A stretch of DNA of 64,000 bases from a virus, in IMG/VR virus record IMGVR_UViG_3300045988_120282, positions 70,940-134,939 of that record. One strand, written 5' to 3'. This document shows, piece by piece, positions 8,678 to 36,340 of the stretch. The translations under genes and the position numbers were made by a program. The notes beneath the pieces were generated by a model. The model was not told the DNA's origin. It was given only the letters and a program-made list of their open reading frames with translations, and ran no database searches. Positions within the stretch are counted from its first letter, which is position 1. Every line of letters begins with the position of its first letter.

Positions 8678-8773
8678 TGAATACAAATTAATATAGGTAA
8701 CTAGGATACTTATGGAAAATTCCAGAGTGTCTTTTTTTATACAAATTTTTACATAAGAAAGGTGGAATTAATT

Positions 8774-10126
8774 ATGAATCTAAACGAAATGGAAATCCCT
8801 TGCGATCCAATTTTGGATAAGGCAAAGAGAGATGAACTGGTGCAGAACACAGAACTTTTAAAACAAGTTACGATCAAGCCGATTCCGTGGCTCCCTGGAC
8901 GAGATTATATCACTACGGAACAGGTAGCACGATTTTTTGATGGAGATGTTGAGGAAGTCAAACGATTGTGTACGAAGTATCGTAAAGAATTTTTGGAAGA
9001 TGGGATGGAAGTTAAGACAGTGCAGGAGATTATTGATGGTCAGGATGCAACAACGGAAAAACAGAAGGGAAGAATCATGGTAACGTATCCGAACGGATTA
9101 AATATCTCATTCGGTTATAAGGGTGCTAAGGTGTTCACTCTTAAATGCTTAATCAGATTATCTTTACTGATGGAAACTTCAAACCTTGCTGAGAGCGTAA
9201 GATATTATGTTTTTATCAACGATTATATCACGATAGAAGAACAGAGAGAACAAGAACAGGTAGAGGCAGGTGTGCAGCTTGTTGACACAACGGAAATTTT
9301 AGGCAGACGAATTGATCTGTATAGAAGTATTGAAGATCCGTTATTCCTTGCGAGAGATGTTGCAGAATGGATTGATTACAGTAAGAGAGATAATGGAAAA
9401 TATAAGACAGACATGATGTTACAATCTGTTGATTCAGATGAAAAATTTAAGACTAAAATTTTGACTGCCAACAATCTTGGCACTCAGAATTTAGGTCAAT
9501 TAGACACTGATGGAAAAACTAAAGTTCCATTTTGGTTTCTCACAGAAGATGGACTCTATGAAGTGTGTATGCAATCACGTAAGCCGATTGCAAAGCAGAT
9601 GAAGAAACAGATTAAAGAATATCTTAAAAACATCCGTAAGACAGGCGGTGCAGTTGACTTTGGGAAAGAGTCACAGTTCATTGAACACTACTTCCCGTCA
9701 TTTTCTGAGGATGTCAAGCTTGCTATGGTAACCGATCTGCGAACACAAAATAAAGAACTTAAAGAAGAGAATCAGAAGTTGCAGAATGATAACAAGTTAT
9801 TAGCAGCGGAAATTTTAACATGGGATGATCGCAATAAGATGAACGCTGGGATTAGGAAGTTGGCTGCGGTAACAGGAACGCAATTCTCTGTTATGTGGAA
9901 TGAGCTTTATAAGAACTTACAGTATAAATATCAGATTGATGTTAAGAAACGTGGAAAGAAACCATTTCTTCAGTGGATTCAAGAACATGAATGGGATAAG
10001 GTATTGAAAGTCTTTTGTGCAATGTGCGAGGCTAGAAACCTATCTCCAACAGATATGTTCCAACAGACGGCACCTGTGGAAAATTTATATGATAATGAAG
10101 ATGAGGATGATGAAGTATGGAATTAG
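8774..10126 (+). CDS. phage antirepressor-like protein (ORF6N-like N-terminal domain plus KilAC/Ant-like region)
   Basis: N-term TTEQVARFFDGDVEEVKRLCTKYRKEFLEDG resembles ORF6N; middle DGLYEVCMQSRKPIAKQMKKQIKEYLKNIRKTG resembles Bro/KilA-type antirepressor core; start moved to ATG after AGGTGGAATTAATT. Confidence 0.6.
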   Translation: MNLNEMEIPCDPILDKAKRDELVQNTELLKQVTIKPIPWLPGRDYITTEQVARFFDGDVEEVKRLCTKYRKEFLEDGMEVKTVQEIIDGQDATTEKQKGRIMVTYPNGLNISFGYKGAKVFTLKCLIRLSLLMETSNLAESVRYYVFINDYITIEEQREQEQVEAGVQLVDTTEILGRRIDLYRSIEDPLFLARDVAEWIDYSKRDNGKYKTDMMLQSVDSDEKFKTKILTANNLGTQNLGQLDTDGKTKVPFWFLTEDGLYEVCMQSRKPIAKQMKKQIKEYLKNIRKTGGAVDFGKESQFIEHYFPSFSEDVKLAMVTDLRTQNKELKEENQKLQNDNKLLAAEILTWDDRNKMNAGIRKLAAVTGTQFSVMWNELYKNLQYKYQIDVKKRGKKPFLQWIQEHEWDKVLKVFCAMCEARNLSPTDMFQQTAPVENLYDNEDEDDEVWN

Positions 10127-10675: not shown

Positions 10676-11770
10676 ATGAACCTACAGTTAGTAAAAACGG
10701 AAAATTTTAACGATATAGCGTGTGATTTTTATAGTGCTGAGGATCAGTTGTGGATGAGCAGACAACAGATTGGGTTTGCATTAGAATATAAAGATCCTAG
10801 AGTCGCCATTGCAAAAATTCACGATGCTAATAAAGAAAGACTAGATAGAGATTCAGTTGTTACCAAATTGGAAACAACTGATGGAAAATCTTATTCTAGT
10901 TATATCTATAATGAACGTGGCATTTATGAAATTTGTAGAAGACGTAGACAACCCAAGGCTGATGCCTTTATGGATTGGGTATGGGATGTGATTGGAGCTT
11001 ATCGTCATGGAAATTTAAGAACAGGAACTCCCGTAACAACAGTGGAGCAATTTCTTACAGAACAGACAGAACTTATGAGGCAGATGGAAAGAAACAATGA
11101 ACGCCTATACAATGTTACTATCAAAGGTTTTAATCAGTTGGCGGACATTGTAAAAGAGATGAAAACCGAACGAAAAGAACTATATAAGCAGATCGGTAAA
11201 CCTACGAAAGATATTCCAGTAGTAGATACTGAAAGTGTTATTGCAGAATACAAACTTAACGAATGGAAATCCAACGTATATTCTATCATTAATGATATTC
11301 TAAAAGAATCTGATGAATTAGGAACTACTACGAGAGATATTCTTAAAGAAGTATACAGGTATCTCACTAACACATATGGAATTGTGTGGGAACAGGATCG
11401 GAAAGAATACAAAGAGAAGTATAATATTAGCGAAAGAGGCAATGTACCAACGATTGATCTTTGCTATGACAAGTATCCTGATCTGTTAGTCAATTCATTG
11501 GAAAAACTTCTGCGACAGTTCCGCAAAGAAAATGCACAGCCTGATTGGGAAGAAATGAAGATCAAGATTACCAATTATGCTAATCATATTGGAAATAGGT
11601 CTAAAGGTGGAACGTCTGTGTATCGGAAAATCTACACTAAGATGACAGAGAATGGTGTCAACTGGGATGAATATGCTCATGGATTGTCTAAATCTCAGCT
11701 TATTAAAACAAATACAACTTTGTACAACAGATTTTACGAAGCAGCGGTGGAAATTATTTCAGAAGAGTAG
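10676..11770 (+). CDS. Bro-N domain antirepressor-family protein
   Basis: N-terminal VKTENFNDIACDFYSAEDQLWMSRQQIGFALEY...GIYEICRRRRQPKADAFMDWVWDVIGAYRHGN matches the Bro-N fold signature. Confidence 0.75.
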   Translation: MNLQLVKTENFNDIACDFYSAEDQLWMSRQQIGFALEYKDPRVAIAKIHDANKERLDRDSVVTKLETTDGKSYSSYIYNERGIYEICRRRRQPKADAFMDWVWDVIGAYRHGNLRTGTPVTTVEQFLTEQTELMRQMERNNERLYNVTIKGFNQLADIVKEMKTERKELYKQIGKPTKDIPVVDTESVIAEYKLNEWKSNVYSIINDILKESDELGTTTRDILKEVYRYLTNTYGIVWEQDRKEYKEKYNISERGNVPTIDLCYDKYPDLLVNSLEKLLRQFRKENAQPDWEEMKIKITNYANHIGNRSKGGTSVYRKIYTKMTENGVNWDEYAHGLSKSQLIKTNTTLYNRFYEAAVEIISEE

Positions 11771-27183: not shown

Positions 27184-27780
27184 ATGGACGTTAATAAATT
27201 ATTGGTTGTCGTCGATATGCAGAATGATTTCATCGACGGAAGCCTTGGAACCAAAGAAGCACAGGAAATTGTTCCCAAAGTAATTGAGAAAATTAAAAAT
27301 TTTGATGGCATTATTGTAGCAACAATAGATACACATCACGAAGATTATTTTTCTACACAGGAAGGAAAGAAACTTCCAGTAAAACATTGCATTAAAGGAG
27401 AAGATGGTTGGCGATTCAATAAAAAAATTGCAAAGGAGTTATTATCATCTGAAATGTTTACAGAATATCATAAGCAAGAAAAAGGAATATATCTTTTAGA
27501 CACATATCGTAAAGAAACATTTGGGTCATTAGATCTTGCATGTGATTGTGAAGCTGAGTTTGGAGAAGGTAATAGATCTCACCCAGAAGATGTTGAAATT
27601 ACACTCATTGGTCTTTGTACAGATATTTGTGTAATCTCCAACGCAATGTTGTTAAAAACAACGTTACCAGAGGCAAAGCTTATTGTAGATGCATCGTGTT
27701 GCGCAGGTGTAACGCCAGAGAGTCACAAGAACGCACTTGAAGCTATGAAAATGTGCCAGATTGAAGTAATCAATGAGTAA
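27184..27780 (+). CDS. isochorismatase-family hydrolase, nicotinamidase (PncA)-like
   Basis: LLVVVDMQNDFIDG (catalytic Asp region) and LIGLCTDICVISNA (catalytic Cys) typical of PncA/isochorismatase fold. Confidence 0.75.
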   Translation: MDVNKLLVVVDMQNDFIDGSLGTKEAQEIVPKVIEKIKNFDGIIVATIDTHHEDYFSTQEGKKLPVKHCIKGEDGWRFNKKIAKELLSSEMFTEYHKQEKGIYLLDTYRKETFGSLDLACDCEAEFGEGNRSHPEDVEITLIGLCTDICVISNAMLLKTTLPEAKLIVDASCCAGVTPESHKNALEAMKMCQIEVINE

Positions 27781-27794
27781 AGGAGTGATGAAGG

Positions 27795-28631
27795 ATGATT
27801 ACTATTGGTGGAGTACCAGTTGTTCCAGAATCTTTTCCAGATGGAACACAGAAAATTGATTTACCGTTAGGAGCAATGAGATCACGGATTGCAGTAAATA
27901 AATTTGTATCAATTGAATGGCTGTATGAATCAGATAAAGAATTATTTTCGCTATATTGTATTTCAAAAAGTATTCGAGAATATTTCCCACATTTATCACA
28001 GTGTTTAGTGATGCCGTATATTCCGAATGCAAGATTTGACAGGGTTAAAGATCATAACGAATGTTTTACATTAAAATATTTTGCAGAAATCATCAATGAA
28101 TTAAATTTCAGAAAGGTCATCGTAGCAGATCCTCACTCAGATGTTTCTAAAGCATTGATTGATCACCTACAATATATACCAATTAAACTATATATTTCTA
28201 AGGTTTGCAATAAAGTCCTTAAAGCAGAACCATCAAGAAATCTTGTAATCTATTTCCCAGATAGCGGATCACTAAAAAGATATTCTGAATTTGTATCAGA
28301 TGATTATCCGATTGTCTATGGAATTAAAAATCGTGATTGGAAGACAGGCAAAATTCTTGGTATTGAGATTCATGGAGATACAGATAAATTAGATGAGAAT
28401 ACAGCAATTTTAATGATTGATGATATTTGTAGTAAGGGTGGCACATTCTACTACGGATCAAAAGAATTAAACAAATACGGTTGTAAAGATATGTATTTAT
28501 ATGTTAGTCACTGTGAAAATACAATTCTTGATGGAGAATTATTAAAGGAAGATAGTTTGTTTAAAAAAGTGTATACGACACGTAGTATTTTTACAAAAGA
28601 GCATGAGAAGGTTGAGGTGTTAGATTTATGA
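27795..28631 (+). CDS. ribose-phosphate pyrophosphokinase (Prs) homolog; candidate ADP-ribose pyrophosphokinase (Adps-like)
   Basis: Prs-family blocks VMPYIPNARFDR (vs PYYGYARQDR), VIVADPHS (vs IALDLHA), AILMIDDICSKGGT (vs AILIDDIIDTAGT); shorter and divergent relative to housekeeping Prs. Confidence 0.75.
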   Translation: MITIGGVPVVPESFPDGTQKIDLPLGAMRSRIAVNKFVSIEWLYESDKELFSLYCISKSIREYFPHLSQCLVMPYIPNARFDRVKDHNECFTLKYFAEIINELNFRKVIVADPHSDVSKALIDHLQYIPIKLYISKVCNKVLKAEPSRNLVIYFPDSGSLKRYSEFVSDDYPIVYGIKNRDWKTGKILGIEIHGDTDKLDENTAILMIDDICSKGGTFYYGSKELNKYGCKDMYLYVSHCENTILDGELLKEDSLFKKVYTTRSIFTKEHEKVEVLDL

Positions 28632-30097
28632 AACAGACAAATCCAATGTTATTAATTGATTTTTACAAAGCAGTCCATGCTGAAATGTTACCAAAAGGTA
28701 TTACAAAATCTGTTTCTTATTTTACTCCACGTATGAGCAGAGTAAAACGATGGAATGAAGTAGCCATGTTTGGATTACAAGGATTCATTAAAGAGTATTT
28801 GGTCGATTATTTTAATGAGTATTTTTTCTTTGAATATAGAAACAAAGCAATTGGTACTTATAAGACAGTAATGGATGCAGCTCTTGGAGAAGGTACATAT
28901 GGATTACAGAAAATCGAAGATTTATATGATCTTGGCTATCTTCCAATTGAGATTAAGGCTCTTCCTGAAGGAACTTTAGTACCAATGCATGTGCCGATGT
29001 TTAGTATTGAGAATACTCACAAAGATTTTGCATGGTTACCACAGGCATTAGAAAGTTTAATTTCAGCAGAAATGTGGCATCCGATGATAGCTGCGACTGT
29101 CGGGCATACATATAGACAGATCGTTAATAAGTTTTATGAAATGACTTGCGATGATGATATCCCAAAATCTAAGGCATTAGGGGCTTTCGATTTTCGTGGC
29201 GAAGAATGTTTACAGTCTGCGGTTAAAGCAGGGGCAGGATGGTGTTTATCATTCTTGAATACAGCAACAGTTCCAACAATTCCGTATTTAGAGAGAAATT
29301 ATAACTGTGATTGTACGAAAGAGCCAGTTGCTTTTGGTAGTCCGTCTACTGAGCATTCGGTTATGTGTAGTAATTATGCGATTGACGGAGATGAAGAGAC
29401 ACTGATTAAAAGATTGCTAACAGAGATTTACCCAAATACAAGCTTCTCCGCAGTGTTAGATTCTTATGATTATTGGAATGTTGTAGAGAATATTCTTCCA
29501 AAACTCAAGAATGAGATCATGAATCACAATGGATGTTTTCTTGTAAGAGGGGATTCAGGAGATTGTGTAGATGTAGTAACCAGAACAGTATTCAAGTTAT
29601 GGGAAGAATTTGGCGGAACTACGAATAGTAAAGGATACAAAGTATTAGATCCTCATGTAAAAGCAATTTATGGAGATTCAATTACAGTGCAGAGATGTGA
29701 GCAGATTTATGACATCTTAGAGAAAAATGGATTCGCAGCAAGCAATGTTGCACTTGGCGTTGGATCATTCTCATTTCAGTGTATCGAAGAAGATGGAGTT
29801 TTGAAACCATTTACAAGAGATACGTTTAGTAGTTGCATCAAAGCAACATATTGTGAGATTGATGGCAGACCATATCCGATTTTTAAGAATCCAAAAGATG
29901 GCGGATTTAAGAAATCTCAGAGAGGTTTATGTCATGTCTATAAAGGATCAGACGGCAAACTGACATTTAAAGATGAATATACTTCAGAAAATCTTCCAAT
30001 GAATAATTTGCTTGAGACGGTATTTAGAGACGGTAAATTGGTCAAAGAACAGTCATTACAGGAGATTAGAAGAGTGTTAAACGAAGGAGAATTTTAA
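28628..30097 (+). CDS. NAMPT-family phosphoribosyltransferase (NadV / Namat-like)
   Basis: Collinear with NAMPT over full length: LLIDFYKAVH, LPIEIKALPEG, FDFRGEE, PSTEHSV, VLDSYD, VRGDSGD, NSKGYKVLDPHVKAIYGDSI. Confidence 0.85.
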   Translation: MKQTNPMLLIDFYKAVHAEMLPKGITKSVSYFTPRMSRVKRWNEVAMFGLQGFIKEYLVDYFNEYFFFEYRNKAIGTYKTVMDAALGEGTYGLQKIEDLYDLGYLPIEIKALPEGTLVPMHVPMFSIENTHKDFAWLPQALESLISAEMWHPMIAATVGHTYRQIVNKFYEMTCDDDIPKSKALGAFDFRGEECLQSAVKAGAGWCLSFLNTATVPTIPYLERNYNCDCTKEPVAFGSPSTEHSVMCSNYAIDGDEETLIKRLLTEIYPNTSFSAVLDSYDYWNVVENILPKLKNEIMNHNGCFLVRGDSGDCVDVVTRTVFKLWEEFGGTTNSKGYKVLDPHVKAIYGDSITVQRCEQIYDILEKNGFAASNVALGVGSFSFQCIEEDGVLKPFTRDTFSSCIKATYCEIDGRPYPIFKNPKDGGFKKSQRGLCHVYKGSDGKLTFKDEYTSENLPMNNLLETVFRDGKLVKEQSLQEIRRVLNEGEF

Positions 30098-30114
30098 GAG
30101 AGGAGATATAAAAC

Positions 30115-30885
30115 ATGAGTTTTAATGCAGCAGAAACCAAAGACAGATTAGTACAGTGGATTAGAGATTGGTTTAAAGTTAATGGAAGATGGTGTAATGC
30201 CGTTGTAGGAATTTCAGGCGGTAAAGATTCATCAGTTGTCGCTGCCTTATGTGTCGAAGCACTAGGTAAAGATCGAGTTATTGGAATTATGATGCCACAG
30301 GGTGTGCAGAGTGATATTGAGTATTCTCAGATGCTATGTGATCATCTAGGAATTGAACATTACACAGTTAATATTTTTAATGCTTGCAGAGATATTAAAC
30401 ATGAAATCAGAGATGAATTAGGCGGTAAATGGAGTAAACAGAGTGCCACAAATTTACCTGCTCGTATCCGAATGGCTACATTGTATGCTTTTGCACAGAG
30501 TATGAATGGAAGAGTAGCAAATACATGTAATTTATCTGAAGATTGGGTCGGATATGCAACAAGATATGGAGATTCAGCCGGAGATTTTAGTCCATTAAGT
30601 GATCTGACTGTGACAGAAGTTAAAGCAATTGGTAGAGTTCTGGGACTTCCAACAGAGTTAATCGAAAAAACACCTACTGATGGATTATGCGGTAAGACAG
30701 ATGAAGATAATCTTGGATTTACATATGATATGTTAGACGAATATCTGAGAACTGGAGTATGTAAAGATGAAGCAGTGAGACAGATCATTGACGAGATGCA
30801 TGAGAAGAATGTATTTAAACTTGCTCCAATGCCTAAATTTATATCTGGCATGTGGATCGAGGCAGGAATGGAGTTGGATGATTAA
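30115..30885 (+). CDS. nadE: NH3-dependent NAD+ synthetase
   Basis: PP-loop VVGISGGKDSSVVAALC and overall NadE length/architecture. Confidence 0.85.
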   Translation: MSFNAAETKDRLVQWIRDWFKVNGRWCNAVVGISGGKDSSVVAALCVEALGKDRVIGIMMPQGVQSDIEYSQMLCDHLGIEHYTVNIFNACRDIKHEIRDELGGKWSKQSATNLPARIRMATLYAFAQSMNGRVANTCNLSEDWVGYATRYGDSAGDFSPLSDLTVTEVKAIGRVLGLPTELIEKTPTDGLCGKTDEDNLGFTYDMLDEYLRTGVCKDEAVRQIIDEMHEKNVFKLAPMPKFISGMWIEAGMELDD

Positions 30886-30887
30886 AT

Positions 30888-31220
30888 ATGGAAGTTAAAG
30901 CAAAATGGACAGGTCGTGGTTTTGCACTCTGTATTGGAGAATGGAAGCTTGATGTTGATGGCAAAGATGTTACCGATAAGATTCCAGAAGACTTACGCAC
31001 AGAACCTATGAATACATATAAAAGATATGAGCGATGGTATTTTAAGGACTGGGTTGAAGAATGGGAATCATATTATGACGGACTGAAACAAGATGAGTGG
31101 ATTGAGGCTAATAAGTATTGGTTAGATAAAATTACAAAAGATATTGATGTTCAGCGCCAGATCTTCAAAGCAATCAATGAAGAGGATTTTCGCACTAATT
31201 CTTGTGGCGGATGTATTTAG
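30888..31220 (+). CDS. hypothetical protein
   Basis: ORF. Confidence 0.5.
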   Translation: MEVKAKWTGRGFALCIGEWKLDVDGKDVTDKIPEDLRTEPMNTYKRYERWYFKDWVEEWESYYDGLKQDEWIEANKYWLDKITKDIDVQRQIFKAINEEDFRTNSCGGCI

Positions 31221-31285
31221 TAACAAGATTATGACATCTATATATGGTGTTGTGATAAATAAATTTTATAACAAAGGAGATATTT

Positions 31286-32746
31286 ATGATTGAAGTAATT
31301 GGAACAGTGGTACCAGTGGTTATTGCGGTAGGTGGCGTAGGAGCTATTATCGGTAGCGGTTATGTCAAAGCAAGTCCAGATAAAGCTTATATTATTTCTG
31401 GACTTAGAAAGACACCTAAGACATTAATTGGTAAGGCAGGGTTAAAAATCCCATTCTTTGAAAAAGCAGATCATCTTAATCTTGAGTTAATTCCAATTGA
31501 TGTTAAGACATCAAGTTCTGTGCCTACAGCAGATTATATCAATATCAATGTAGATGCAGCGGTCAATGTAAAGGTTAGCAGTAATCCAGAAAGATTAAAA
31601 CTTGCAGCAGAAAACTTCTTAAATAAGCCAGTAGGCGATATTGGACAGGTCGCAAGAGAAGTCCTTGAAGGTAATATGCGAGAGATCGTTGGAAAGATGA
31701 GCCTCGAAGAAATGGTTTCTGATCGTCAGAAATTTGCACAGCTTGTTACAGAAAATGCGAAGCCAGACCTTGCTGCAATGGGATTAGATATCATCAGTTT
31801 TAATGTGCAGAATTTTATGGATGATAATGATGTTATTGAAAATCTTGGTGTAGATAATGTTGTTAAAATTCAGAAGAAGGCTGCAATTTCCAGAGCTGAA
31901 AGCGAAAGAGATATTGAAAAAGCAAAAGCAATGGCTGAAAAAGAAGCGAATGATGCAAGGGTTGAGTCAGAAACAGCGATCGCAGAAAAGAATAACAATC
32001 TGGAAATTAAAAAATCTGAACTTGAGAAGATTTCAAAAGCAAAGAAGGCTGAGGCAGATGCAGCATACAAGATTCAGGAAGAAAAATCACGTAAAGAAAT
32101 TGAAATTGTAACTGCGGATGCTAATATTATGCGTCAGGAAAAAGAAATTGAACTGAAACGTAAAGACGTTGAGGTAACAGAGCAGACATTAGATGCACAG
32201 ATCAAGAAACAGGCAGAGGCTGAAAGATATGCCTCTCAGCAGAAAGCAGATGCAGATTTATATAAGAGACAGAAAGAGTCAGAAGCTAATAAATATGCTA
32301 AAGAAAAAGAAGCTGAATCTACAAAATATGCTATGGAACAGGAAGCTGAAGGTATCCGTGCGAAAGGTGTAGCAGAAGCTGAGGCGATTAAAGCAAAAGG
32401 TATTGCTGAAGCAGAAGCGATCGAAAAGAAAGCCGAAGCTATGAAGCAGATGGGTAAAGCTTCTATCGTCGAAATGATGTGCCAGATGTTCCCAGAAGCA
32501 GTTAAAAATGCAGCTGCGCCATTAGGAAACGTAGGAAGTATCACTATGTATGGAGAAGGCAATACAACAAAATTAACAAAAGATATTATGAATGTTGTGA
32601 ATCAGGTATCAGATGGTGTTAAAGGATCTACAGGTGTTGATCTTGCAAAGATGTTGAAAGATTTTGTTTCTGAAGATAAAGAAGTAGAGTTTACAGATAA
32701 TGAAAATCTTGGAACACCAGAGCCAGCAGATTACCGTGAGTTCTAA
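31286..32746 (+). CDS. floT: flotillin (SPFH/band-7 domain, FloT/YuaG-like)
   Basis: N-terminal TM helix, SPFH core (REVLEGNMREIVGKMSLEEMVSDRQKFAQLV...MGLDIISFNV), Glu/Ala-repeat coiled coil (AEAEAIKAKGIAEAEAIEKKAEAM), C-term IVEMMCQMFPEAVKNAAAPLGNV as in B. subtilis FloT. Confidence 0.9.
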   Translation: MIEVIGTVVPVVIAVGGVGAIIGSGYVKASPDKAYIISGLRKTPKTLIGKAGLKIPFFEKADHLNLELIPIDVKTSSSVPTADYININVDAAVNVKVSSNPERLKLAAENFLNKPVGDIGQVAREVLEGNMREIVGKMSLEEMVSDRQKFAQLVTENAKPDLAAMGLDIISFNVQNFMDDNDVIENLGVDNVVKIQKKAAISRAESERDIEKAKAMAEKEANDARVESETAIAEKNNNLEIKKSELEKISKAKKAEADAAYKIQEEKSRKEIEIVTADANIMRQEKEIELKRKDVEVTEQTLDAQIKKQAEAERYASQQKADADLYKRQKESEANKYAKEKEAESTKYAMEQEAEGIRAKGVAEAEAIKAKGIAEAEAIEKKAEAMKQMGKASIVEMMCQMFPEAVKNAAAPLGNVGSITMYGEGNTTKLTKDIMNVVNQVSDGVKGSTGVDLAKMLKDFVSEDKEVEFTDNENLGTPEPADYREF

Positions 32747-32760
32747 TAGGAGAAATTATT

Positions 32761-33495
32761 ATGGCAATTATTATTATTTGTGTAATTGTAGCAATTATCG
32801 CATATTTACAATTTACTAAAAACGGAAAGCAGATTAAAAATGTGGCATCTGGAACAGTTGCAGAAAAGATCAAAGAAAATGCAATGACTCCAGAGGGAGC
32901 AAGAGCCAGATATAATACTGCAATTAAAGAGAAACAGGACTTTTATAAGAAAACAATGGGTACATACACAACGGTAGCTGGTAGATTGGCAACAATGGAA
33001 GATGATCTCAAAGAAACAAAAGAAGAAATTTCTAAAACCGAGGCAATGATCAACCAGTACATTGATAATCATGATGATAAAAAAGCAATGTATTATGCTC
33101 AAAAATTAGCCACGCTAAAGGCACAGAAATCAGTGTACGAAAAGAAAATCCCAGAGTTGCAATCCACAAAAGATAAACAAGAAGAAATTAAAAACCAAGC
33201 GTATGATCAGCTCATTAAGCTAAAAAGCGAAAAAGATACTGTGGTTCTTCAGATGGAGGCAGATCAGCAGATTGCAGAATTGCAGAAAAATTTAGATCAA
33301 TACAATAGTTCAAATGCTGCTCAGGAAGGTTTGGAAGAGGTTCGAGAAGGAGCAAAGAAACTTAGCGAACAAGCCAAAGGCGTTGCTATTGCGTATGAAT
33401 CTAGTGCAGAAACATTGGATTATCATATGGAGCAAGAAGAGCGACAGCAAGAAGCTAAAGCCATATTAGATCAGATGAAAAATGCTCGCAAATAA
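32761..33495 (+). CDS. membrane-anchored coiled-coil protein, PspA/IM30-like
   Basis: N-terminal TM helix then long heptad-repeat region; MEDDLKETKEEISKTEAMI and later segments resemble PspA helices; assignment is tentative. Confidence 0.4.
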   Translation: MAIIIICVIVAIIAYLQFTKNGKQIKNVASGTVAEKIKENAMTPEGARARYNTAIKEKQDFYKKTMGTYTTVAGRLATMEDDLKETKEEISKTEAMINQYIDNHDDKKAMYYAQKLATLKAQKSVYEKKIPELQSTKDKQEEIKNQAYDQLIKLKSEKDTVVLQMEADQQIAELQKNLDQYNSSNAAQEGLEEVREGAKKLSEQAKGVAIAYESSAETLDYHMEQEERQQEAKAILDQMKNARK

Positions 33496-33536: not shown

Positions 33537-33630
33537 ACTGGCATTTTATGACTCTATAAAACACAATATATAGTGATTATCCAATTATTGAACCACTATA
33601 TATAGTTGTATAAAGTGCCAGTCATGGAAA
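33537..33630. repeat. large nested inverted repeat upstream of tRNA
   Basis: Outer arms AACTGGCATTTTATGAC / ATAAAGTGCCAGTCAT; inner arms CACAATATATAGTG / CACTATATATAGTTGT. Confidence 0.45.
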
Positions 33631-33763
33631 CATAGCTCAGTTGGTAGAGCAGGCAATACATAAACATTCATTTTTCTACCTCCATATAAGTATTTTTATT
33701 TATTTACATTTAATTTTCATCACATATAAATTGCCGACACAGGTTCGATTCCTGTTGTTTCCA
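33626..33763 (+). tRNA. tRNA gene interrupted by an ~67-nt AT-rich insertion in the anticodon loop (anticodon region CAT?)
   Basis: 5' half GGAAACA-TA-GCTC-AGTTGGTA-GAGC-A-GGCAA (33626-33656) and 3' half TTGCC-GAC-ACAGG-TTCGATT-CCTGT-TGTTTCC-A (33731-33763) form perfect acceptor, D, anticodon and T stems; loop begins TACATAA; no encoded CCA. Confidence 0.5.
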
Positions 33764-33765
33764 CT

Positions 33766-33803: not shown

Positions 33804-34007
33804 TTAATCGTTTGGTATGACCTCGATAACATCTTCAACTTTGCAATCAAGATATAAGCAAATTTTGTCAATGTTTTCGAGACTGATATACTGATTCTTT
33901 GCCATCTTGGCAATTGTACCAGACCCCATATTTAAAGCGGTTCGTAAATCAGATTTTGTCATACCCTTTTTCGCTAAAGTTACGAAAAGCGGTTTATAAC
34001 TTATCAT
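33804..34007 (-). CDS. XRE-family helix-turn-helix transcriptional repressor (Cro/CI-like)
   Basis: MTKSDLRTALNMGSGTIAKMAKNQYISLENIDKICLYLDCKVEDVIEV is a canonical XRE HTH; RBS GGAGGT 7 nt before ATG 34007; only minus-strand gene, divergent from an operator-bearing promoter. Confidence 0.8.
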   Translation of the reverse strand: MISYKPLFVTLAKKGMTKSDLRTALNMGSGTIAKMAKNQYISLENIDKICLYLDCKVEDVIEVIPND

Positions 34008-34083
34008 ATGATATACCTCCACATCTATATTGTAACATATTATATACAGGATGTAAAATAAAATATTCAAGAAGTTGAAGATT

Positions 34084-34117
34084 TTGCATTGACACTATGT
34101 GCAAGAAGTGGTATATT
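34084..34117 (+). promoter_or_regulatory. promoter/operator copy 3: TTGCA-TTGACA-ctatg-TGCAA ... TGgTATATT
   Basis: -35 TTGACA 34089-34094, 17-nt spacer, extended -10 TGgTATATT; TTGCA / TGCAA inverted repeat around the -35; divergent to the XRE gene. Confidence 0.55.
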
Positions 34118-34173
34118 ATATTCAACAAATGAAAGGTAAACTTCAAGAAAATGAAATATGAAGGAGTGAGAAA

Positions 34174-35277: not shown

Positions 35278-35790
35278 ATGAGTACAACAAAAACAATTGA
35301 TATTTCAGTGCTGCCAGAGGCAGAACAGGATCTAATAAAAGCATTATTTGATAAATGTTGTGAAAGAGCGAAACCAAAAGAAAAAACTAATTCAGGGTCT
35401 AAAGTTTGGAAACCAAAATACGGTGAAAGATATCATTACATTGATGGTAGCGGATCTATTTATAGTGCAATATGGTTTAATAGCATTGTCGATAACGGTA
35501 GATGGGTATTAGGCAACGTATTTAAAACACAAGAAGAAGCAGTATTTGCAAGAAAGAAAAGAAAAGTAGAAGTTGAACTTGAGCGGTATGCAAAGGAACA
35601 CAATGGCACAGAATTTGCCAATCGTTGTTATTGTATTCGATGTGAAGAAGACGGAAAAAGACTTCTTTGCGATACATGGGCTACAACAAAAATACAGGGT
35701 ACAGTTATGTTTACATCAAAAGATGTTTTAGTTGATGCAATTGAAGCAATCGGAAGAGACAGAATCATTAAATACATCTTTGGAGCATAA
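35278..35790 (+). CDS. hypothetical protein (tandem paralog 1)
   Basis: Shares TIDIS-L-EA-Q-L-K-LF---CER and GNVFKT blocks with 35807-36340. Confidence 0.55.
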   Translation: MSTTKTIDISVLPEAEQDLIKALFDKCCERAKPKEKTNSGSKVWKPKYGERYHYIDGSGSIYSAIWFNSIVDNGRWVLGNVFKTQEEAVFARKKRKVEVELERYAKEHNGTEFANRCYCIRCEEDGKRLLCDTWATTKIQGTVMFTSKDVLVDAIEAIGRDRIIKYIFGA

Positions 35791-35806: not shown

Positions 35807-36340
35807 ATGGGTACAGAAAAGACAATTGATATTTCAAAATTATCTGAAGCACAACAGAATTTATTCAAATCATTATTTGAGCAATTTTGTGAAAGATCAG
35901 AAAAAGAAGAAAAAGCTAATTCATGTGGTTTAAAGAATGGGGATACGTATTATTTCATCACTGATGATGGGCATATCTGTATGGCAAAATGGCAAGGTAG
36001 AGCATCAGATTTTAGAAGATTAGCTTTAGGTAATGTATTTAAGACTGAAAAGGATACAGAGTTTGCTATTGAAAAGCAGAAGGTTAGGGTTGAATTGCAA
36101 ATATATGCTGATGAACATAATGATCCTGATCAAGAAGAATGGGATGGAGCGAATTTTCATTATTATATTGGATATGATGTGACTGAGGATGATTTGGCAA
36201 AAATCCCTGCCGTACAACTTAGACGCCTAAATGAGGTATATTTTTCTTCTAAAGAAATCGCTGAGGATGCCGCCAACAAGGTTGGAGCAAAACGCATCAT
36301 AAAATATCTATTTGATGTTGATTGTGAGTTGGATGAATAG
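35807..36340 (+). CDS. hypothetical protein (tandem paralog 2)
   Basis: See 35278-35790. Confidence 0.55.
   Translation: MGTEKTIDISKLSEAQQNLFKSLFEQFCERSEKEEKANSCGLKNGDTYYFITDDGHICMAKWQGRASDFRRLALGNVFKTEKDTEFAIEKQKVRVELQIYADEHNDPDQEEWDGANFHYYIGYDVTEDDLAKIPAVQLRRLNEVYFSSKEIAEDAANKVGAKRIIKYLFDVDCELDE

Follow-up and report, generated by a model that had tools for sequence, protein, structure and literature searches.

SPFH proteins scaffold membrane complexes, and the LiaI-LiaH system of Bacillus combines a small membrane anchor with a PspA homologue. In B. subtilis, the SPFH protein YdjI is required for the localization of PspA at the membrane (PMC8581546). Bacterial PspA operons with transmembrane (TM), Band-7, and flotillin proteins have been described, as has the Lia system (PMC11237479). 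Jug (jumbo gut) phages transcribe both a terD-pspA-like operon and a P-type ATPase that translocates calcium, and Ca-ATPases are carried by gut phages of Bacteroidaceae and Bacillota (PMC12880540). The association of SPFH and PspA proteins in bacteria and the terD-pspA-like pair in Jug phages are, in other words, already known. Here we describe a locus in a 64,000-nucleotide stretch of viral DNA (IMG/VR record IMGVR_UViG_3300045988_120282, positions 70,940–134,939; hereafter, the window), in which a flotillin gene, open reading frame (ORF) A, is followed by ORF B, a gene for a PspA/IM30-like protein with its own TM anchor. In sister phages, the flotillin is replaced by a block of Ca-type P-type ATPase, vWA, and TerD genes. 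In the literature that we searched, there was no report of a TM-anchored PspA-like phage family, of a phage flotillin paired with it, or of a swap between flotillin and Ca-ATPase/vWA/TerD genes.

The pspA-ydjGHI (samGHI) operon of B. subtilis resembles the window in that SPFH and PspA-family genes lie side by side. However, the SPFH protein of the window is a FloT-type flotillin with its own anchor, whereas YdjI is cytosolic. In addition, a TM helix is built into the PspA-like protein of the window, the two genes stand in the opposite order, the locus is phage-borne, and no YdjG- or YdjH-like (TPM, zinc-ribbon) genes were found among the neighbors scanned. The bacterial PspA-flotillin operons share the flotillin domain architecture and an associated PspA homologue with the window, but no CesT/Tir, AAA+, or YqiJ/YuaF partner was found at the window locus, and ORF B is TM-anchored; that paper mentions neither viruses nor vWA proteins (PMC11237479). 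The anchor of ORF B is fused, whereas LiaI is a separate protein, and the window locus has no LiaF/LiaRS regulation. The terD-pspA-like operon and Ca-ATPase of Jug phages resemble the sister cassettes in their described gene content and are also phage-borne. Flotillin is not mentioned in that work, and a TM-anchored PspA family, a contiguous ATPase-vWA-TerD-PspA-like operon, and a cassette swap are not described there (PMC12880540). Finally, the sister cassettes share TerD, a TerF-like vWA protein, and a sub-membrane coiled coil with the Ter systems of jumbo phages (PMC7824862). However, the window has no Ter gene, the coiled coil is PspA-like and not TelA, and where TerC would stand, the cassettes have a Ca-type P-type ATPase.

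The flotillin and the tethered PspA-like protein

The window is AT-rich (GC content of ~0.34), and its + strand carries nearly all of the genes. Phage replication genes are present, encoding a DnaB-like helicase and a RecJ-like exonuclease together with a DNA polymerase (phrog_405) and an exonuclease V/Dda-like helicase, and 100% identical copies of ORF B occur in IMG/VR viral contigs of 67–164 kb, three of which are 160–164 kb long. Therefore, the window is part of a large phage genome, and its source is a large gut phage of ~150–165 kb. A megablast search of 50,697 phage records with an 8.5-kb region gave no match; thus, the phages in GenBank include no close sequenced relative. Both genes lie on the + strand at the positions given in an earlier note on this DNA, and the locus has the following layout.

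30888–31220, + strand: PM0253-family backbone gene, 110 amino acids (aa) (Pfam PM0253, phrog_20678); left border of the cassette slot
31221–31285, + strand: leader with the ribosome-binding site AAAGGAG (31273–31279); precedes the slot and belongs to the backbone, outside the cassette
31286–32746, + strand: ORF A, flotillin-family protein, 486 aa (Pfam Band_7 and Flot, flotillin-1 match)
32747–32760, + strand: 14-nt spacer with the Shine-Dalgarno sequence of ORF B (AGGAG, 32748–32752), read directly
32761–33495, + strand: ORF B, TM-anchored PspA/IM30-like protein, 244 aa (from family-level profiles and structure prediction)
33804–34070, − strand: Cro/C1-type helix-turn-helix (HTH) gene (Pfam HTH_26, 3e-14); right border of the slot

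The two ORFs are separated by 14 nt, and each has its own Shine-Dalgarno site. A scan for promoters and terminators around the pair found no more sites than expected by chance, and it found no intrinsic terminator after ORF B on the + strand.

Residues 50–207 of ORF A match Pfam Band_7 (PF01145; E-value, 7.8e-24; 85.1 bits against a cut-off of 23.6), and a marginal match to Flot (PF15975) was also obtained (E-value, 3.2e-6; 27.7 bits against 27). Human flotillin-1 (9bq2_B) is aligned at its residues 5–418 with residues 29–455 of ORF A (E-value, 5.3e-54), and human flotillin-2 is aligned end to end (E-value, 1e-48). These searches place ORF A among the SPFH/flotillin proteins, so that it passes the profile-search test set in the earlier note. 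The note had also described it as collinear with Bacillus FloT, and the general layout agrees with this description. A hydrophobic N-terminal anchor (residues 7–23; mean Kyte-Doolittle value, 2.26) aligns with the anchors of cellular homologues and is followed by the SPFH core, a somewhat shorter EA-rich coiled coil, and a PEAVKNAAAPL block, whose core positions are kept in the cellular proteins. However, residues 47–461 align with positions 54–476 of the 477 in the NCBIfam FloT model (NF058507) at 298.5 bits, short of the 700 bits set for an equivalog. ORF A belongs to the flotillin family without being a FloT equivalog.

Longibaculum muris, Coprobacillus cateniformis, and further gut Bacillota encode the nearest cellular proteins, which are ~68–71% identical to ORF A. 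The gene is of recent cellular ancestry and was taken from bacteria. The phage flotillins have an acidic C-terminal tail of their own, which ends in YREF in the lineage of the window. Comparison of phage alleles gave a ratio of nonsynonymous to synonymous substitution rates (dN/dS) of 0.03–0.06 at a dS of ~0.2, indicating that strong purifying selection maintains the flotillin gene. No NfeD match, which would indicate an NfeD/YuaF/YqiJ-type partner, was found by Pfam in the two adjacent genes scanned (30888–31220 and 32761–33495). None of the PADLOC protein models matched ORF A, ORF B, or their neighbors (E ≤ 0.01); thus, the locus corresponds to no known defense system.

ORF B alone matches phrog_33389, a family of unknown function (E-value, 1e-21), and its match to Pfam PspA_IM30 (PF04012) is weak (E-value, 0.014). 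The signal for PspA becomes consistent at the family level. Among close homologues, 15 of 16 touch PspA_IM30, and a profile built from 16 sequences placed Vipp1/PspA at the top of a search against the PDB (E-value, 0.04), with residues 31–195 collinear with 8–175. A profile search of 1.84 billion representative proteins yielded 308 clusters (50% identity) at E ≤ 1e-3, and most of these matches are 240–260 aa long and were matched end to end. The members of a deep alignment (A3) of 74 sequences are 15–48% identical. With the profile of this alignment, the PspA/Vipp1 structures 8qbw, 8qbv, 8qbr, and 6zvr were found at E-values of 1.2e-6 to 1.8e-6 (residues 49–207 on 28–187), and the first coiled coil unrelated to PspA followed at 3.7e-4, which is ~200–300 times worse. 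PspA_IM30 is matched by 47 of the 74 members at E ≤ 0.01 (best, 6.6e-13), and the next Pfam family is matched by three. The PspA-like character of ORF B is therefore supported by sequence profiles at the family level. A weak NCBIfam match to SMC-related coiled coils was dismissed.

AlphaFold2 with the deep alignment gave a model of ORF B with a predicted local distance difference test (pLDDT) score of 89. Helices are predicted at residues 2–18, 20–41, 44–102, 106–183, 189–214, and 216–243, of which 44–102 and 106–183 would form a long hairpin (α1 and α2/3) that is followed by two more helices (α4 and α5). In a Foldseek search of the PDB with the first model, places 1–10 were all occupied by Vipp1/PspA. 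The expectation of the earlier note that the product of the downstream gene combines a TM helix with a PspA/IM30-like heptad protein and has a PspA/ESCRT-III-like fold thus agrees with the profile searches and with the predicted ESCRT-III-type helical hairpin.

The TM helix at residues 2–18 is followed by a cluster of Lys/Arg residues. An N-terminal TM helix is present in all 74 family members (median Kyte-Doolittle value, 2.9), and Lys/Arg residues are nearly absent ahead of it and number 2.5 on average behind it. This positive-inside pattern indicates that the PspA-like part lies on the cytoplasmic side (N-out/C-in). With this topology, ORF B needs no recruiting factor from the host. Of the Vipp1 sequence, the end of α0 is matched by helix 20–41 and the DPEKM segment by TPEGA, a motif that is almost invariant in the family. 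Classical PspA, IM30, and Vipp1 are bound peripherally through the amphipathic α0 and have no TM helix; the ORF B family departs from them by placing a TM helix ahead of an α0-like helix. Thus, the TM helix is added to a complete PspA core (α0 to α5) and does not take the place of α0. Among phage alleles, the dN/dS of ORF B is 0.05–0.13; both ORFs are real genes.

The ORF B family is almost restricted to phages: it was found on 197 IMG/VR contigs and on four contigs of metagenome-assembled genomes (MAGs) among 185,579 species genomes, in a genome scan that used two peptide patterns only and therefore undercounts distant members. Three of the MAG contigs reach further upstream than the match, and all three carry the ATPase/TerD arrangement described below; the fourth is a 1.2-kb fragment. 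Among cultured phages, the sole match is gp247 of Bacillus phage G (25% identity; E-value, 3e-11). The genes directly ahead of gp247 in this phage (NC_023719, 497 kb; L100 4690–7693) are gp243, the permease of an ATP-binding cassette (ABC) transporter, gp245, an ABC ATPase, and gp246; they represent a third kind of membrane-transport neighbor for the family.

Cassette exchange in sister phages

We inspected 79 IMG/VR loci that contain a relative of ORF B. At 37 IMG/VR loci, a flotillin precedes ORF B, which is at least 94% identical to that of the window. At 13 loci with the same backbone, ORF B follows a Ca-type P-type ATPase, a vWA protein (TerF/copine-like), and TerD. Their backbone genes are closely related to those of the window (NAMPT-like, mostly 97–99% identical; NadE, 88–95%; PM0253, 78–96%; HTH, 92–100%), and their ORF B alleles are 72% or 50% identical to it. 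A more distant type, found at 35 loci, comprises an ATPase, three TerD genes, and an ORF B with 38–42% identity. The gene pattern is the same at loci from other collections. ORF B is always the last gene, whether after ATPase-vWA-TerD (~20 loci), after an ATPase with two or three TerD genes (~40), or after the flotillin. The sister block therefore consists of a Ca-type P-type ATPase, a vWA protein or none, one to three TerD genes, and the TM-PspA-like gene (L012 3896–8738; L043 2873–7735; L007 3444–8780), and in one case TerD and ORF B are fused into a single protein (P0023; L006 8001–9080). The phages with ATPase/TerD and ORF B are ~90–220 kb in size and binned with Bacillota MAGs. These blocks extend the observations on phage Ca-ATPase and terD-pspA-like genes (PMC12880540) to phages of this size.

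The borders of the exchange are precise. In blastn comparisons of the window with two loci of the ATPase type (L043 and L053), homology stops at 31291 and restarts at 32744–32751. Therefore, the exchanged block is exactly the flotillin ORF. In L043, the Ca-ATPase gene is preceded by nearly the same leader, ribosome-binding site, and ATGATT start as the flotillin, and a ribosome-binding site similar to that of ORF B follows TerD. The PM0253 gene lies upstream of both cassette types (78–100% identical), and the HTH gene lies downstream of both (91–100% conserved). The PM0253 gene was considered as a cassette member and rejected, because as part of the backbone it accompanies both types. In L026, the flotillin is cleanly deleted, and the PM0253 gene runs directly into the ribosome-binding site of ORF B, which is kept. 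The flotillin is thus dispensable in at least this natural variant. No relative of TerD, vWA, or ATPase was found by tblastn across the window, and no Ter-type gene (TerC, TerB, or TelA) was found at its locus.

ORF B alleles of different cassette types have a dS of 1.17, compared with 0.2–0.3 for the flanking genes. In L001, the ORF B of the flotillin type is a recombinant, the C-terminal half of which is 98–100% identical to a TerD-type allele. The N-terminal half goes with the flotillin in every case, which linkage alone could account for. Flotillin and ORF B occur together in one species-level cluster, whereas ATPase/TerD and ORF B occur together across deep lineages; by parsimony, the flotillin is probably a derived replacement. 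ORF B is a conserved phage gene, and the flotillin-ORF B pair is not an ancestral unit.

Flotillins had been called very unusual in phages in the earlier note. This holds for the sequenced phages, since only 10 of 50,697 GenBank phage records were matched by tblastn and no PHROGs family matched the flotillin; yet relatives recur on 145 IMG/VR viral contigs from several lineages of large phages. In other lineages, the flotillin has other membrane-related neighbors (L141 2790–3569 and 8104–10623; L151 4133–4705; L155 7632–8087), which are a TM protein of 259 aa located 41 nt upstream, a member of the LemA family, a protein of 839 aa that has shoulder and repeat domains of the major vault protein, and a 151-aa TM and coiled-coil protein 89 nt downstream. 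In the phage-like locus L093 (2020–6941), an RNase H-like gene and a gene for a Ca-type P-type ATPase lie behind a flotillin that is 81% identical to that of the window. No TerD gene was found in this locus, and no ORF B relative was found in ~7 kb downstream.

Neighboring genes and RNA

A cluster for NAD+ salvage or reconstitution (27184–30885, + strand) lies upstream of the slot.

27184–27780, + strand: nicotinamidase-like gene
27795–28631, + strand: phosphoribosyl pyrophosphate (PRPP)-synthetase-like gene, overlapping the next gene by 4 nt
28628–30097, + strand: NAMPT-like gene
30115–30885, + strand: NAD synthase gene (NadE)

NARP1 is a phage anti-defense pathway composed of Adps and Namat (bioRxiv 10.1101/2024.02.11.579819; PMC12774641), and the PRPP-synthetase-like and NAMPT-like pair of the window, a candidate for membership, has the same architecture. 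Several phage lineages have such an NAD+ cluster in the neighborhood of the ORF B cassette. A significant linkage between flotillin and NAD-salvage genes was rejected, because they lie within 6 kb of each other at four of ~50 other loci, which we estimate to be about the level of chance for 150-kb genomes.

Downstream of the slot, the HTH gene is the only clear minus-strand gene of its region (33804–34120). The + strand holds a strong σ70-like promoter facing it (TTGACA-17-TATATT, extended by TG; 34089–34117), and the 5′ end of the HTH gene itself carries a promoter-like site (34057–34029), which falls within the ORF as listed. Together, these elements may constitute a regulatory switch that directly follows the cassette. 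Elsewhere in the window, two large proteins have anti-repressor (Ant)-like domains (8762–10126 and 10676–11770), and 35278–35790 (170 aa) and 35807–36340 (177 aa) are adjacent paralogs with N-termini MSTTKTIDIS and MGTEKTIDIS and similar C-termini. Two related phages have TnpB/Cas12f-like (OrfB_IS605) genes some kilobases downstream of the ORF B cassette (L004 12474–13751; L012 13550–14458).

A tRNA gene between ORF B and the HTH gene (33626–33764, + strand) has an anticodon loop that is interrupted by an AT-rich insert of ~67–81 nt. The full Rfam tRNA model was matched with 46.4 bits (cut-off, 29; E-value, 6e-9). The gene was missed by ARAGORN with default settings, and with introns allowed it was reported as Tyr(ata), which is doubtful. 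Its fold is a cloverleaf with a ~70-nt loop (z = −3.2). All of the ~48 related phage loci carry the insert, which varies by small indels, while the exon parts are conserved. The insert is too short for a group I intron, and a small protein on its minus strand is unlikely because 1-nt indels among the alleles fall inside it.

Possible roles of the cassette

We favor, with moderate confidence, the reading that the two genes form an accessory module that keeps the host membrane sealed and energized during infection, as homology and gene context suggest. The module would act at the cytoplasmic face of the host membrane. The tethered PspA-like protein may polymerize on the inner leaflet over stressed areas and limit the leakage of ions and protons, and the flotillin may form SPFH scaffolds that organize or assist this polymer, in the way that YdjI serves PspA in B. 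subtilis. In sister phages, a calcium pump with TerD and vWA proteins would support the same task in place of the flotillin, so that the slot looks like a set of exchangeable genes for preserving the membrane of the infected cell. The infected cell would thereby stay energized until lysis. The existence of a calcium-handling alternative points to membrane damage and ion influx as the common selective pressure; stresses in the gut, processes of the phage itself, or responses of the host could cause the damage. The link between SPFH and PspA proteins in B. subtilis (PMC8581546) and the bacterial PspA-flotillin operons (PMC11237479) fit this membrane-stabilization reading. The tight, operon-like spacing, the common leader, and the purifying selection on both genes also support it, as does the cellular context in the donor lineage, where the flotillin follows a PadR-HAAS dyad, which has been tied to membrane-stress signaling (Ravi et al.). 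Further support comes from the TM anchor kept throughout the ORF B family, the cassette swap with its precise breakpoints, the TerD::ORF B fusion, the nearly phage-only distribution, and the genes transcribed in Jug phages (PMC12880540).

Several observations weigh against it. The function proposed for the phage of the window is drawn from homology and gene context, and ORF B as a single sequence scores 15.5 bits against PF04012, with a gathering score of 33.9. The coupling of flotillin and ORF B is confined to one phage lineage: no ORF B-family or TerD gene was found within 6 kb of ~50 flotillin loci in other phage lineages (flotillins 41–66% identical), and a recurrent pairing across phage lineages was rejected for this reason. 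At the Longibaculum-type cellular flotillin locus examined, no PspA-like gene was found, so joint capture of the pair from a host was also rejected. Together with the natural loss of the flotillin in L026, these results suggest that the flotillin may not act through ORF B. Of the remodeling or stabilization of the host membrane proposed in the earlier note, stabilization during infection remains the best reading. For interference of the pair with host signaling or defenses localized in microdomains, the other suggestion of the note, the analysis yielded evidence neither for nor against.

The main rival, which we regard as possible though distinctly less probable, is that the flotillin is a captured host gene (a moron) standing alone in a recombination hot spot, and that its adjacency to ORF B has no mechanistic meaning. 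The precise borders of the slot mark a cassette-exchange site, as this explanation would have it. The other-lineage loci with their LemA, vault-like, and other TM neighbors, the PspA-free cellular locus, and L026 are also in line with it, as is L093, where the flotillin lies beside RNase H and Ca-ATPase genes. However, the 14-nt distance between the genes, with no promoter-like site between them beyond chance, speaks against an independent flotillin. The functional SPFH-PspA link shown in B. subtilis (PMC8581546) and the tight coupling of the replaced block itself to ORF B, including the TerD::ORF B fusion, also argue for a connection, and so does the co-segregation of the N-terminal half of ORF B, unless it reflects linkage.

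It is rather unlikely that the cassette builds a Ter-like barrier under the membrane, in which a coiled-coil polymer with either flotillin or TerD/vWA proteins excludes superinfection by blocking the DNA of competing phages or toxic compounds. Components of jumbo-phage Ter systems, including the sub-membrane TelA and TerF-vWA proteins, have been proposed to act against superinfecting phages (Iyer et al. 2021, PMC7824862). TerD and a TerF-like vWA protein are present in the sister cassettes, where ORF B seems to hold the position of the TelA-type coiled-coil protein of such operons. However, the matches of ORF B are to PspA/IM30, and the listed 25 Pfam families with the most matches do not include TelA. 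Moreover, TerD, TerC, TerB, and vWA genes are absent from the window, and no PADLOC model matched.

We give a similarly low probability to a more specific proposal, in which a TM-tethered ESCRT-III-superfamily protein and its exchangeable partners would be a self-contained kit for membrane repair that counters membrane-perforating effectors of abortive infection. In one cassette, the Ca2+ pump would act with TerD and a copine-like vWA protein as calcium sensors, paralleling the calcium-triggered ESCRT-III wound repair of eukaryotes; the other cassette would be a captured flotillin scaffold. Such a kit would complement the neighboring NAD+-reconstitution genes, which would counter NAD+-depleting defenses.

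That ORF B is a generic membrane-anchored coiled coil, with a likeness to PspA that comes from its composition, is improbable. The PspA_IM30 match of the single sequence is below the cut-off, and tropomyosin and designed coiled coils appeared in the PDB profile search (3.7e-4 and weaker). However, PspA/Vipp1 came out on top in three independent searches, the alignment is collinear over ~160 residues and places TPEGA on the DPEKM segment, and the deeper profile and the Pfam counts given above separate PspA from other coils. PspA counteracts the dissipation of the proton-motive force and both proteins face the cytoplasmic side, but a role in the timing of lysis, by buffering the membrane against premature holin triggering or by organizing the lysis machinery, is the least probable explanation, since the pair lies among NAD-salvage, regulatory, and replication genes and no holin, endolysin, or spanin gene was found next to the slot among the neighbors scanned.

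PspA/ESCRT-III proteins and flotillins have a central part in maintaining membranes across all domains of life, but almost nothing is known of the versions that bacterial viruses themselves encode. The locus defines a membrane-tethered PspA-like family that is almost phage-only and comprises 308 clusters. It also offers natural "isogenic" variants of one phage, in which ORF B is preceded by a flotillin, by a Ca-pump/vWA/TerD block, or by neither. These variants bear on the role of SPFH proteins for PspA, on the long-standing puzzle of what TerD is for, and on calcium pumping by gut phages. If the module does serve in counter-defense, membrane repair would join the anti-defense strategies of phages.

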